The translations under genes and the position numbers were made by a program. A DNA stretch of 64,000 bases, taken from IMG/VR virus record IMGVR_UViG_3300046007_003718, positions 1 to 64,000 of that record; one strand, 5' to 3'. The DNA is from a virus. A model generated the notes under the pieces. It searched no databases, was not told the origin of the DNA, and saw only the letters and a program-made list of their open reading frames with translations. Below are positions 42,073-63,831 of this stretch, piece by piece (the first letter of the stretch is position 1; the number at the start of each line of letters is the position of its first letter).

Positions 42073-43110
42073 CTAGAAGGCCGTCACCTCCTCCACCTCA
42101 TCCTCGGACAGCAGGCCCGCCTCCACGATGAAGGGCGAGACCCCGGTGATGTTGCGCCCGTAGACGGAGGTGCTGCTGACGAACAGAACGTCCTCGGCGC
42201 GGGTCATGGCGACGTATGCCATGCGGCGCTCCTCCTCAACGTCCTGCGGGGTCTTGGCGAGCGCGTGGGGCAGCAGGCCCTCGCTCATCCCGGCGATGAA
42301 CACGACCGGCCATTCCAGCCCCTTGGAGCGGTGGATGCTGAGGATGGTCACGGCGTCGTCCTCGTTCTCGCCCCGGAGGTCGGAGGCCTTGGCGGTCACG
42401 CTCTCCTGCTCCACGAACCATGCGACGAACGCCGCGAGGTCGTCCCCGAACTCGGCCCCGGAGAGGGCTACGTCCTCCACGATTGCGATGGAGCCGTCGC
42501 CGTTGGTCTCGGGGGTCTCGGTGTCCTCCTCGGCCTGATCGCGCAGCCATGCGGCCACCCCGGAGTCCTCAGCGATGCCGCGCACAATGTCAATCACGGG
42601 CACCTTGCCGACCATCTCACGGTACTTGCGAATGAGGGCGATGAAGGCGTCCATGTTGTCCTTCTGGCGACGGTTTATACGGGCGTCCTTAAGGCCAAAG
42701 AACGGGTCGTTCGGGCAGGCAGCGTAGGCCTGACGGGCGACACCGGCACCAAGGAACCGCGAGGGCGTGGACAGGGCCGTGGTCAGGGCCTCCTCGTCGG
42801 CGTTGCCGACGACCACGCGCAGGTAAGAGGTGATCGCCTGAGTCTGGTACCGCTTCCAAAACGACGGGGAACCGATGATGCGAAAGGTGAAGCCAGCGCG
42901 GGTAAACGCGCTTTCCAGCGGGCGGGTCTGACGGTTGGTACGGACCAGCACGGCGATGCTCGCGCCGGGGACACCGGCATCGCGCAGGGCCTTGATCTGG
43001 GTGGCGATGTTGTCGGCCTCCTCGCCCTCGTCGTTGTAGTGCGCGTAGTTGATGGGGTCCAGCCCGGTGGCCGGGATGATGAACTCAGGGATATCGGTGG
43101 TGGTGTCCAT
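42073..43110 (-). CDS. UvrD/PcrA-like helicase, C-terminal half
   Basis: IAVLVRTN, SIHRSKGLEW (motif V), EEERR.AYVAMTRA (motif VI); own AAGGAG RBS. Confidence 0.92.
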   Translation of the reverse strand: MDTTTDIPEFIIPATGLDPINYAHYNDEGEEADNIATQIKALRDAGVPGASIAVLVRTNRQTRPLESAFTRAGFTFRIIGSPSFWKRYQTQAITSYLRVVVGNADEEALTTALSTPSRFLGAGVARQAYAACPNDPFFGLKDARINRRQKDNMDAFIALIRKYREMVGKVPVIDIVRGIAEDSGVAAWLRDQAEEDTETPETNGDGSIAIVEDVALSGAEFGDDLAAFVAWFVEQESVTAKASDLRGENEDDAVTILSIHRSKGLEWPVVFIAGMSEGLLPHALAKTPQDVEEERRMAYVAMTRAEDVLFVSSTSVYGRNITGVSPFIVEAGLLSEDEVEEVTAF

Positions 43111-43135
43111 GTGGTCTCCTTAGTCGTGTAGAGGC

Positions 43136-43188
43136 ATCGTACAGGAAGGGCCGGGAGGATGCAAGCCCTCCCGGCCCCTCGTTTATCC
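43136..43188 (-). promoter_or_regulatory. Promoter TTGCAT-17-TACGAT inside a GC inverted repeat, plus a TAAACG box
   Basis: -35 at 43164-43159 lies in the loop of GGGCCGGGAGG/CCTCCCGGCCC. Confidence 0.7.
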
Positions 43189-43191
43189 GGG

Positions 43192-44271
43192 CTACCCGGC
43201 CAGCACCTCCACCGGGACGCCCTCAGCCTCGTCGTGGTCACGGTGCGGGGCGACCTCCTTGCCCAGCCGCTCCTTGTTGTGGGCGATGAGGCGGGCCGCA
43301 GCCTCCACGATGGGGCGACGGGAGCGGTAGTTGGTACCAAGGTTCACGACCGTCACCTCGCCCTTAGTCTGGGCGATGAACTCGGCAGGGACCGCGCCCC
43401 GGAACGAGTAGATGCTCTGGTCGTCGTCCCCGACCATCGTGAGGTTGGAGGTCTGCGATGCCAGCACCCGCATGAGGCCGAACTGCACCGGGTTGCAGTC
43501 CTGCGCCTCGTCCACGAACACCCACTTGACGCGGCCGATCACGGCCTCGCGCACCTTGTCGTCCTTGGCGGCAGCGAGACCCCGGATGCCCATGCATGAG
43601 AAGGTGACGCTAATCACGCCGCCCTGCCGACGCTTCCAGCCCCGGTCGCGGCCCTTACCCTGAACCGCCCAACCCTCGTCCAGCAGGCGCTCCATGATCT
43701 TGTAAACGGTGCCCACCACCGGGTCGGCATCGGGCAGGGAGAGGTACTGCTCGGCGGTGAGGTTCTGGTCCATGATCTTGGACACGGCCTTGGCGATCTT
43801 GCCAGCCTTGCGGGGCATGTCCACGCCGTACTCGGAGCCGCCCCACTCGCTGTCGTTGGCGAGGTTGTGGCCGAACGGGCAGTAGCGCGAGGGAGCCTCT
43901 ACGATGCCGCGCACCATGCCTGTCACCTGACTCGGGGACAGCAGGGAGCCGCCGTACTTGCCAGCGTTTATCCGCTTACCCTTCTGCTGGCGGTAGAACT
44001 TGTACCCCAGCGAGTGCAGGGTGCCAACGTGGGCCAGCCGCTCCACGACCTCATCACCGACAAGGGTGGCAAGGCGGGACTTCATCTCCTCGGCGGCAGC
44101 CGTGGTGAAGGTAGCCAGCACGATGCTCTCGGGGGCCTCGCCCTCGGAGATGAGGCGGGCGACACGGTGAACCAGCACGCGGGTCTTACCGGAACCAGCA
44201 CCAGCGTTAATGACCAGCGGCCCCTCGCCGTGGTCAATCGCCGTCTGCTGCTCGGGACTCATGGTAGCCAT
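43192..44271 (-). CDS. UvrD/PcrA-like helicase, N-terminal half
   Basis: Q motif, AGAGSGKT, TFT..AA.EM, DEAQD, VGDDDQSIYSFRGA, NYRS; start re-called at MATMS (GGAGG RBS). Confidence 0.92.
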   Translation of the reverse strand: MATMSPEQQTAIDHGEGPLVINAGAGSGKTRVLVHRVARLISEGEAPESIVLATFTTAAAEEMKSRLATLVGDEVVERLAHVGTLHSLGYKFYRQQKGKRINAGKYGGSLLSPSQVTGMVRGIVEAPSRYCPFGHNLANDSEWGGSEYGVDMPRKAGKIAKAVSKIMDQNLTAEQYLSLPDADPVVGTVYKIMERLLDEGWAVQGKGRDRGWKRRQGGVISVTFSCMGIRGLAAAKDDKVREAVIGRVKWVFVDEAQDCNPVQFGLMRVLASQTSNLTMVGDDDQSIYSFRGAVPAEFIAQTKGEVTVVNLGTNYRSRRPIVEAAARLIAHNKERLGKEVAPHRDHDEAEGVPVEVLAG

Positions 44272-44315
44272 GCTCTTTCCTCCTCGTTCGGCGGGGCCGT
44301 TCCCCGTGTTCACGC

Positions 44316-44359
44316 ATCGTACCACAGGTGGTTCTGAGATTGCAAGTCCTCGTTTAGAC
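44316..44359 (-). promoter_or_regulatory. Promoter with TAAACG box
   Basis: GTCTAAACG-N5-TTGCAA-18-TACGAT. Confidence 0.75.
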
Positions 44360-44389
44360 GGGGTGCCGCATTGGCGTTTGGGCGCGAGT

Positions 44390-44930
44390 AGCACACCTTG
44401 TCTGAATCCACAAGTACCCCTTGTGCGTACTTGCTACAAAGTCGGTCCCGAGATTGTAAAGTCCCTGCTCCGAGCAGGCACTTTCACCAGAGCCGTTCTA
44501 CGGGCCTTGGAGGGATTCCCGAGGGTCGTTACACCTGAGACCTGTAAAGTCCCTGCTCGTAGCGACTTTCGGGGGTTGGCACGGAGGCCCGAGAATCGCC
44601 TGAGAGCGATTGTGGTGAGACTTTGTGCGAGATTGACACAAGCAAGTTGAGGTCGCTTGTGCGGATTCAGCACAATCTCAGTTGCTTGCACTCGCAAGGA
44701 CTCAGTTGCACTTGCAAGTACCTTGTAGCACTTTGTCACAAGAATCCCGTTAAAGCCGTTGGGTTTCTTGGGTATAAAAGCCTGAGATGTTGTTGGGATT
44801 CTTGTGCTGATTTCGCACAATGTTGTTGCAGTAGCAAGTACCTTGTTCAGTTTCGCACAAGGTCACGCTTGTAGGTATCCGCACAATGTAGTTGCAAGTG
44901 CAAGCACAGCGTTTACACGCGGTCCTCGGG
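44390..44930. repeat. Non-coding TTG/CAA-rich tract with direct and inverted repeats (candidate origin)
   Basis: CACAAGAATCCC inverted pair (44737/44795); GCAAGTACCTTGT x2; TTTCGCACAA x2; TGTAAAGTCCCTGCTC x2. Confidence 0.7.
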
Positions 44931-55203: not shown

Positions 55204-55246
55204 ATGGTATCAGATCAACCAACCAACTGCAACTACTCGTTTATAC
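55204..55246 (-). promoter_or_regulatory. Promoter with TAAACG box
   Basis: GTATAAACG-N5-TTGCAG-17-TACCAT. Confidence 0.7.
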
Positions 55247-55477
55247 TCCACGCCAACCAGAACAGGTGCCGCATGTGCAACAGCAACTTGTGGGGGATGC
55301 AAGCCAAAGGTAAGCGATAGCCCTCTCAGCATAACGTCCTTTACTATCGGCACAATAAATACGCTGCCAAATAGAGATTGTATCATCGCAGAAGTAACGC
55401 CTATGGGGGTTATCCCATGCCCTCTTATAGATAGGCTTATTAAACCACTCATTATTAGAGCATCCACATCCACACAT
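55241..55477 (-). CDS. Cys-rich small protein
   Basis: AAGGAGG RBS; CGCGC N-terminus and CCCTCGTC C-terminus. Confidence 0.65.
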   Translation of the reverse strand: MCGCGCSNNEWFNKPIYKRAWDNPHRRYFCDDTISIWQRIYCADSKGRYAERAIAYLWLASPTSCCCTCGTCSGWRGV

Positions 55478-55502: not shown

Positions 55503-55596
55503 TACCCCTAGCGGGAGTCGAACCCGCGATAAACTTCCGCGTAAGCCAAGCGTCCTTGTGCGTTACCGGCGTCGTTGCCGCTAGACCATTAGGGGC
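55503..55596 (-). ncRNA. tRNA-like RNA with the anticodon arm replaced by a long hairpin
   Basis: Acceptor GCCCCTA/TAGGGGT+A; D arm GTC-TAGCGGCAAC-GAC; T arm GCGGG-TTCGACT-CCCGC; no 7-nt anticodon loop. Confidence 0.8.
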
Positions 55597-55602
55597 ATGA
55601 GT

Positions 55603-55630
55603 ATTATAGACGGTTCCACAATCAAGTCAA
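55603..55630 (-). promoter_or_regulatory. Near-consensus sigma70 promoter of the tRNA-like RNA
   Basis: TTGACT-16-TATAAT, 6 nt before the first G of the acceptor stem. Confidence 0.75.
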
Positions 55631-55846
55631 AGGTAGGCTTGACGTAACAATGCCCGCTCCCTGCTCACCCGTCACCGACAACCGATTCCTTTAGTTTACT
55701 TATTATTAGTATAAATGGCTCTCGCGCCTAACGTCCCATATTGGTTGTTAGGATTTCCCGACCTACCAATCGGTTTCTTACGGAGATTCCTCCACCCCAC
55801 TAGGTCAAGAGTGGTAGCCCTCGCCTAGTAGGTCGTGAGAACCGCT
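55631..55846 (-). ncRNA. Candidate structured ncRNA released by the hammerhead
   Basis: Pairings GGTTCTC/GAGAGCC, CGACCTAC/GTAGGTCG, CCTAAC/GTTAGG, AACCGATT/AATCGGTT; no long ORF. Confidence 0.55.
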
Positions 55847-55891
55847 GACGCCTCTCGGCGTTTCGTCCTATCAGGACTCGTCAGAGCGGCT
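55840..55891 (-). ncRNA. Type I hammerhead ribozyme
   Basis: CCGCT-CTGACGA-GTCC(TGATA)GGAC-GAAA-CGCC(GAGA)GGCG-TC^AGCGG: full catalytic core, three stems, GUC cleavage triplet. Confidence 0.93.
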
Positions 55892-63022: not shown

Positions 63023-63831
63023 TTGTCACATCTTGTTAAATAATGACGATGAGGGCCAGAACAATCTGGTTCATCGCAGCCCCATTCCTCTTTTGGTAGT
63101 GGAGACTTGCCAAAATTTCTTGGAGTAACATTTGAAGAGAACTTACCCTCTAGAATCTTTCGTGAATGCATATCGGTGCCAAGATACTTCAAAGGTCCAG
63201 TAGTGGTTCCTTCGGGGATACCATCTCTAACCGGATCCATTACTTTAACTTTAATTGGCTTATCTTTATTATCACTCATCTAACTAACTCCCTATGGTGT
63301 AATTAAGGAACCACCACCAACGGCTCCCGCTGCTGCTGCTCCTTGCATCATACCAGCCAGTTGTCCAAGAACAAAGGCTAGATTAGCAATGCTATTAAAT
63401 CTTCCGGCAAAATTGATTGCTTCATCAACATTTAGAAACAATTCACTCTTATTACCATTAATATCTGTGACAAGCAACTTAACTCCAAGACCATACAGAG
63501 GATGTTCACTAATCCCGACTGAAATACCCTTATTGTTAGAAGCCGAAGGCTCTTCTTGTGCTTGCTTCTCTTCTTCTGACATAATTACCTTTCTTATTTA
63601 AAATTTCCACGGCTTAGAATCAAACAATGTTAATTGATTGTTAAAATCCTCAACCTCGGGAGTTTCTACGCTGGCAGACTTTTCTGCTAGATCTAATCTT
63701 TCTCCATCAGATCTAACTGAGATACCCATATCATCTATTACAATAGATATTCTATCAGTCGCATTAACTTTTGTTTCAAACGGCATCTCGTTATCTTTAT
63801 CAATGCGAATTCTAATCATCTGACTCATCAT
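62998..63831 (-). CDS. Three small hypothetical genes (62998-63279, 63292-63582, 63598-63831)
   Basis: Packed ORFs. Confidence 0.5.

Follow-up and report, generated by a model that had tools for sequence, protein, structure and literature searches.

A structured RNA adjoining a predicted hammerhead ribozyme cut in the genome of an uncultured lake-water virus

What is the RNA encoded by a long non-coding stretch on the minus strand of an otherwise gene-dense viral genome, and how might its ends be formed? The window analysed here is the whole 64,000-nucleotide (nt) stretch (positions 1 to 64,000) of the IMG/VR virus record IMGVR_UViG_3300046007_003718, part of a 110-kb record of an uncultured virus that is ~70% complete, and every gene of the window lies on the minus strand. 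A preliminary description, made from the sequence letters, had flagged positions 55631-55846 (216 nt) as a multi-stem, possibly pseudoknotted RNA of no recognised family. This stretch belongs to ~390 nt without a credible gene, between a 56-codon open reading frame (ORF; 56041-55871) and a 78-codon cysteine-rich ORF (55477-55241). We found there a conserved structured RNA, hereafter X, that begins at the predicted cut site of a hammerhead ribozyme motif; no coding-looking ORF of at least 20 amino acids spans its domain. With moderate confidence, we take X for a genuine structured RNA that is released by the hammerhead and has a role of its own at the RNA level.

As an unknown multi-stem RNA of the minus strand, the flagged element held up, being conserved, folded, covarying and without a match in Rfam 15, whereas its extent had to be redrawn: the unit is 55846-55717, and the 3' part of the stretch is made up instead of the AU-rich linker and the conserved motif, followed by a variable spacer in which a promoter-like site lies (Table 1). 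Folding was compared with that of 200 dinucleotide shuffles. The X domain (55846-55714; 133 nt) reached -57.9 kcal/mol versus a shuffle mean of -38.3 kcal/mol (z = -5.17), and none of the 200 shuffles was as good; the whole 216-nt stretch exceeded its shuffles moderately (z = -2.6, one shuffle as good). The plus strand of the domain folded at -46.0 kcal/mol (z = -3.5), 12 kcal/mol weaker than the minus strand. All the stems listed in the preliminary description are present in the sequence at their minus-strand coordinates. The minimum-free-energy (MFE) structure was nearly identical to the ensemble centroid, apart from one extra pair in the hairpin H2, and we propose that X folds as a four-way junction.

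A blastn search of the region against 50,697 phage records returned no match, and single-protein searches of viral contigs with the neighbouring proteins found none. Alignment of neighbour proteins retrieved 0 viral contigs and three metagenome loci, two of which (L004 and L005) carry the element; both were recovered with the alignment of the relatives (68-83% identical) of P0004, the protein of the gene located two ORFs downstream. In viral contigs, exact-pattern scans found no locus other than L006, L007 and L008, the last two being identical. Diverged copies are also present in the DNA runs X10-X18. Overall, five distinct sequences from different metagenomes exhibited one common layout, termed here the cassette: hammerhead, structured RNA, AU-rich linker, the motif CUAAAGGAAUCGGUUGUCGGUGACGG, a variable spacer, GUGGAACCGUCUAUAAU and a tRNA-like RNA. 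Pattern scans of genome contigs for the D arm of the tRNA-like RNA and for the core of X gave no match, with no sign of a prophage or host copy, and a covariance model of X (R1) found one copy per genome.

X was 97.7% identical between the window and L004/L005, versus 83% for the downstream gene and 57% for the upstream ORF in the same comparison, and 88.7% identical between the window and L006. Positions 18-95 of X (78 nt) were invariant, L006 included, and all 15 differences of L006 fell outside them. Since every base of this core is invariant, the pattern is not codon-like, and X appears, from the sequence comparison, to be under purifying selection as an RNA.

Covariation among homologues, one of the checks named in the preliminary description, yielded compensatory changes in three helices. 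In H4, three double changes in L006 converted CCUAAC/GUUAGG to CUCAUC/GAUGAG. Five one-sided changes preserved pairing: three in the closing helix P1, kept through G-U pairs (U-G to C-G, U-A to U-G, and C-G to U-G) with none broken, and two in H1 (G-U to G-C and G-C to G-U). Across the MFE model of X, 99.2% of the cells were paired, versus 36-52% when the partners were slid by 1-3 columns, and the L006 copy folded into the same MFE architecture (z = -4.8). The previously listed 8-bp stem CGACCUAC/GUAGGUCG fared less well: it is present in the sequence, but one uncompensated U-to-G change in L006 breaks a pair. Because this same change hits a rival extended hairpin, neither of the two is confirmed.

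Directly upstream of X, the hammerhead motif, located with a permissive Rfam scan, exhibited a complete core (CUGACGA, GAAA and GUC) and three perfect stems: I, GCCGCU/AGCGGU; II, GUCC/GGAC; and III, CGCC/GGCG. Stem I is open, as in type I hammerheads; stem II is invariant and the loops are variable; stems I and III each carry one C-G to U-A double change in L006. Among the five cassettes, the motif scored 21-30 bits against an Rfam gathering score of 34 (E from 5e-5 to 0.016, in searches of short stretches). It was the sole hammerhead match in the 110-kb record, and likewise the sole match in each of three related records.

The cut predicted by alignment to the hammerhead model, 55847|55846, falls at the first base of the flagged stretch, a point absent from the preliminary description. 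Hammerhead cleavage leaves a downstream product that starts with a 5'-OH. The 3' strand of stem I (AGCGGU) and the 5' strand of P1 (GGUUCUC) have GGU in common, so that stem I and the full P1 are mutually exclusive. The upstream ORF (56041-55871) ends within the ribozyme: its final codons (RSDES) and its TGA stop are part of the hammerhead sequence, and the stop is located in loop II. In L007, a frame ending in NRSDES* also crosses the hammerhead, though the upstream gene is unrelated, and in L004/L005 the ORF ends just before the ribozyme.

Hammerheads of phages and prophages were described as flanking genes and possibly cutting long transcripts into messages (Perreault et al. 2011, PMC3088659). 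A looser hammerhead pattern found six more viral contigs, in which a near-identical ribozyme stands just 5' of an ordinary ORF, in line with this gene-flanking picture; the hammerheads of Streptomyces phage Wentworth and Agrobacterium phage OLIVR1 are located in short intergenic gaps. Like these known cases, the hammerhead studied here lies at a gene boundary within a long same-strand transcript and has a full core and three stems. Unlike them, its downstream product would be a conserved structured non-coding RNA rather than a message, and the closing helix of that RNA reuses part of stem I.

In two of the viral contigs, the slot of X is occupied by another RNA, X' (L007 and the identical L008). 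Alignment with the other cassettes was good over the hammerhead and again from the AU-rich linker on, while the stretch in between could not be aligned to X. X' is ~125 nt long, with an additional 3' extension, and its fold has z = -3.6; its closing helix, as in X, starts within the 3' strand of hammerhead stem I. Homology between the two was rejected, since R1 fails to detect X'. Given this exchange between the same flanks, X would be a swappable payload within a processing cassette made of hammerhead and tRNA-like RNA.

Table 1. Features of the cassette and its downstream neighbour in the window (positions are those of the 64,000-nt window).
Feature	Positions	Strand	Basis or remark
Type I hammerhead ribozyme	55841..55890	-	Rfam RF00163, 29 bits, E 5e-5, model positions 1-45
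Predicted hammerhead cut, GUC/A	55846..55847	-	Alignment to hammerhead model
Structured RNA X, ~130 nt, closing helix P1 and four hairpins H1-H4	55717..55846	-	Fold and homologues
P1 closing helix: GGUUCUC (55843-55837) and CG (55835-55834) with CG (55726-55725) and GAGAGCC (55723-55717)	55717..55843	-	
H1 hairpin: UAGGCGAGGG / CUCUUG-A-CCUA, loop CUACCA (55817-55812)	55801..55827	-	Loop invariant
H2 hairpin: GGAG-GAAU-CUCC	55782..55793	-	In MFE fold; invariant in all homologues
H3 hairpin: CCGA[UUGGUAGG]UCGG	55758..55773	-	Invariant
H4 hairpin: CCUAAC ... GUUAGG, inner CCA/UGG	55727..55752	-	
AU-rich linker with several UAA triplets	55695..55716	-	Alignment; 1-4 nt indels among relatives
Conserved motif CUAAAGGAAUCGGUUGUCGGUGACGG	55669..55694	-	Common to all five cassettes, X' carriers included
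Promoter-like site TTGACT-16-TATAAT	55603..55630	-	11/12 consensus positions matched
tRNA-like RNA	55504..55596	-	ARAGORN: odd 96-nt 'tRNA-Cys(aca)'
78-codon Cys-rich ORF (MCGCGCS... and ...SPTSCCCTCGTCSGW)	55241..55477	-	Directly 3' of tRNA-like RNA

The pseudoknot first suggested, between the loop CUACC and GGUGG, survives in a changed form, since a better candidate partner was identified in the loop of H3. All six bases of the H1 loop CUACCA can pair with UGGUAG (55768-55763) in this loop, and a 6-nt inter-loop Watson-Crick run was reached by 1.7% of 1000 dinucleotide shuffles. The bases of both loops are invariant within X, leaving no covariation on this contact; in our model, a kissing contact between the H1 and H3 loops probably braces X. 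An 8-nt loop pair was also found in X' (GUUGCCAC with CUCC[GUGGCAAC]GGGG; 0 of 1000 shuffles). In X as in X', the loop of the first hairpin complements that of a later hairpin, in which an 8-nt loop is closed by a 4-bp stem, and GGAAA follows this later hairpin. Having looked for such a contact, we infer from the two modelled folds that X and X' may share an architecture with a kissing contact. The loops of X', like those of X, showed no variation within their type. In this cassette (L007, 3917-4211, minus strand; identical to L008, 1989-2283, plus strand), the loop of the second hairpin of X', GUGGCAAC, is also identical to the D-loop of the tRNA-like RNA in its own cassette (UAGUGGCAACGAC), so that the first hairpin loop of X' could pair with either.

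The tRNA-like RNA at the 3' end of the cassette combines an acceptor stem of 7 bp with a D stem of 3 bp, whose loop contains GG, and a UUCGACU-bearing T arm; it has no encoded CCA. The anticodon arm is replaced by a long bulged hairpin of ~14 bp with a GACG cap, without a 7-base anticodon loop, and the 'anticodon aca' assigned by ARAGORN lies inside the helix of this bulged arm. Acceptor stem, D arm and T arm are paired in all five sequences, with G1-U72 changed to G1-C72; 99.2% of the cells are paired, and three double changes occur in the distal arm. The Rfam tRNA model scored below threshold (22.6 bits in L005). The D and T arms presumably resemble those of actinobacterial tRNA-Glu.

Between X and the tRNA-like RNA, no intrinsic terminator-like site was found. 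The AU-rich linker carries ~75 extra nt in L006. A mini-ORF with a UUG start following AAAGGA in the conserved motif was rejected as a gene, since both its length (14 to >50 codons) and its sequence differ between cassettes. The promoter-like site is placed, as judged from its sequence, for a start at or near base 1 of the tRNA-like RNA; its -10 element and the preceding GUGGAACCGUC (55619-55603) are kept in 5/5 cassettes, and its -35 element in only 3/5. The terminal GUCAA/UUGAC hairpin of the preliminary description, though present in the sequence, is missing in L005 and L006, and its 3' arm is the -35 element of this site. Furthermore, a repeated intergenic module was observed before small ORFs in the relatives (L004, 400-460 and 735-790; L005, 3885-3945). 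It is formed by a long GC-rich hairpin (CAGCCCCGACC...GGUCGGGGCUG) followed by CTAtAGGTGTGTGGCA, and looks like a terminator-plus-promoter unit. A similar sequence, TAGGTGTGTCAAGCC, occurs in the spacer of L005, 5' of the tRNA-like RNA.

Searches against Rfam 15 gave no match to X (55717-55846) at the gathering threshold or at E values up to 10, and no family match to the L006 copy or to X' at the thresholds tried; the families without a match include the RAGATH entries, twister-sister, pistol, hatchet, tmRNA and Y RNA. The comparison with RAGATH motifs proposed in the preliminary description was thus negative for both X and X', with weak scores of 19-22 bits (gathering score, 56) falling on the hammerhead. 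The concept is nevertheless the same, as RAGATH families (e.g. RF03152) are uncharacterised structured RNAs linked to a self-cleaving ribozyme in phage-like DNA. Literature searches found no description of a cassette combining a hammerhead, a structured RNA and a tRNA mimic.

Three other identities were considered for the cassette and rejected. For a transfer-messenger RNA (tmRNA), ARAGORN predicted none, the Rfam match was confined to the T arm (18 nt), C-G is found at pair 3:70, and no tag frame exists, as it is broken by the 1-4 nt indels of the linker. A bacterial Y RNA (YrlA) would be at odds with the normal tRNA topology, open at the acceptor stem, and no TROVE protein was found in the 110-kb record (~70% complete). 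Ligation by RtcB or a circular RNA was discarded because neither RtcB, in this same incomplete record, nor a second ribozyme was found.

Two known systems come closer in design. Engineered constructs that combine a tRNA scaffold with hammerheads (e.g. PMC3401473) follow the same logic, in which a ribozyme sets an exact end, a module is tRNA-shaped and the payload is exchangeable. In those designs the payload sits inside the tRNA, whereas here the arrangement is natural and in tandem, with the tRNA-like RNA as the putative servant of X. The small stable RNAs of phage T4, rnaC (species 1, 139 nt) and rnaD (species 2, 119 nt), resemble the cassette in standing beside tRNA-type genes, and their record labels them simply as small stable RNAs. 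The fold of rnaC includes a T arm and an acceptor-like stem, features also of the tRNA-like RNA described here. They differ in being located inside a tRNA array with no hammerhead; their sequences show no similarity to X, and R1 found nothing at the T4 locus (L016).

In the reading that we favour, X would form the structured part of a small, stable non-coding RNA that is produced early in infection, X being transcribed at the end of the message from the upstream small genes. The hammerhead, transcribed first, would cut at 55847/55846, splitting off the message and leaving X with a 5'-OH located 3 nt before P1. Once the 3' strand of P1 is made, the freed 5' end would be locked into this helix, blocking re-ligation and shielding the end. 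On the 3' side, X would most likely be formed by an RNase P cut at the tRNA-like RNA, ~250 nt downstream, followed by trimming through the AU-rich linker. The RNA would then act in trans and in a sequence-specific manner, as a binder or decoy whose target is a protein or RNA of the host or the phage. The invariance of the 78-nt core speaks for a partner that recognises the sequence; taken alone, the assignment of a binder or decoy function is nonetheless doubtful in our view. Equally tentative is the broader idea of a natural ribozyme/payload/tRNA-mimic expression cassette in which X and X' would be fast-swapping decoys or inhibitors of host defence or RNA-decay factors.

Transcript data did not enter this assessment. 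Four metatranscriptome runs each contained one contig of 156-168 nt within 55615-55889; all were L004-like and one spans the cut site. These contigs are assembled, come from relatives, were found via the conserved part and may reflect DNA in the libraries. They were not counted as evidence and are uninformative on expression level, RNA ends or cleavage.

X might lack any function in trans and serve as a 5' cap structure, sequestering the 5'-OH, making the cut irreversible and protecting the linker and the tRNA-like RNA from decay that depends on the 5' end (RNase J, RNase E). Any stable multi-helix fold would suffice for this. In line with such a role, P1 begins 3 nt behind the cut and shares bases with stem I, in X' as well as in X, and an unrelated X' can fill the slot while hammerhead, linker and tRNA-like RNA stay conserved. 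Such a cap would, however, require neither 78 consecutive invariant bases, beside neighbouring genes that have diverged to 57-83%, nor a four-hairpin junction with complementary loops, and the tRNA-like RNA has an apparent promoter of its own in 3/5 cassettes; we regard this role as unlikely. We also see only a small chance that X belongs to a class of RNA already known but absent from Rfam, a distant T4 small stable RNA being one possibility. The T arm of the 139-nt stable rnaC would agree with such a kinship, but the other scanned genomes contained no sequence look-alike or shared short words, R1 is silent at the rnaC/rnaD locus, and in the relatives 55-70 kb separate the cassette from the true tRNA arrays.

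The two remaining alternatives would place the function in cis or in the DNA. A cis-acting sensor, riboswitch-like or protein-responsive, would control what lies downstream through the long-range 8-bp pairing of AACCGAUU (55775-55768) with AAUCGGUU (55687-55680) noted in the preliminary description, which would mask the stretch between the Shine-Dalgarno-like AAAGGA and a UUG/GUG start. A junction with kissing loops such as that of X bears a general resemblance to ligand-binding three-way junctions; only 1.8% of shuffles gave an 8-bp complement within the window (P = 0.018); and the pairing target lies within the motif conserved in all cassettes. This pairing nevertheless failed the comparison among homologues, dropping to 6 bp in L006 without compensation and having no significant equivalent in X' (P = 0.58 and 0.44). 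As, moreover, the mini-ORF is not maintained and there is no terminator to regulate, a sensor seems very improbable. That the conservation reflects a DNA element (replication origin, packaging site or operator cluster) is, in our opinion, barely credible. The region is rich in GC and dense in inverted repeats beside an AT-rich tract, and its plus strand also folds better than its shuffles. Against this, only G-U pairs in the minus-strand RNA allow the five one-sided substitutions to stay paired, and as these steps would be A-C mismatches on the other strand or in DNA, they indicate a minus-strand RNA and not a DNA element; a complete hammerhead with covarying stems adjoins X on the same strand; and X is swapped as a unit that starts exactly at the ribozyme cut.

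Several points weigh against X as a hammerhead-released RNA with a role of its own. The hammerhead of the window, at 29 bits, falls below the Rfam gathering score of 34, and its cleavage is a prediction from the sequence. The strong promoter-like site separates X from the tRNA-like RNA, so that the two may be separate transcripts and RNase P need not set the 3' end of X. Only three distinct sequences of X are available, in which H2, H3 and the kissing contact never vary, and whichever version of the H1/P2 region is taken, one of its pairs is lost through the single U-to-G change of L006. No homology between X' and X was detected, and their 'same build' is a reading of two folds together with a loop complementarity sought post hoc. 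Finally, the genes around X have no informative domains that would point to a partner protein or target.

Among the genes of the window, those of the baseplate, sheath and helicase were matched by PHROG, and the tail sheath is ~31-37% identical to the sheaths of Mycobacterium, Rhodococcus and Gordonia myoviruses. The samples originated from lake water, and the virus is probably an uncultured myovirus of aquatic Actinobacteria. The 78-codon Cys-rich ORF had no Pfam match and is missing in L004/L005; in L007, another small Cys-containing ORF occupies its slot. Two adjacent ORFs on the minus strand (42073-44394; 400 and 345 amino acids) matched the DNA helicase phrog_1967 at profile positions 151-460 and 457-693, and look like a split or interrupted helicase gene. 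A weak Rfam match to CRISPR-DR60 on the plus strand (63773-63809; 27.7 bits, E = 0.6) occurs once in the 110-kb record and was dismissed as noise, being a single copy without repeats.

The tRNA-like RNA is the sole tRNA-type gene of the 110-kb record. At the far end of this record, outside the window, a gene encodes a 636-amino-acid CCA-adding enzyme (108363-110273, minus strand) with PolyA_pol head, RNA-binding, HD and tRNA_NucTran2_2 domains and a C-terminal extension of ~170 amino acids. A link between this enzyme and the cassette was considered and is not required, since in related records the enzyme gene adjoins an array of ~11 ordinary tRNA genes, 55-70 kb from the cassette. The tRNA array of the virus itself probably lies beyond the end of the incomplete record.

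Phage hammerheads are commonly taken to process long transcripts into messages, and for most of them the biological role is not clear. The locus described here suggests a concrete and testable job for a phage hammerhead, namely making the exact 5' end of a stable RNA. Together, the anticodon-less tRNA mimic and the alternative payload suggest that phages may express structured RNAs in a modular way. If the payloads are decoys against host factors, they would represent a class of RNA-based phage countermeasures, the RNA counterpart of protein anti-defence cassettes, and the cassette would then offer a ready natural means of making RNAs whose ends are defined in Actinobacteria.

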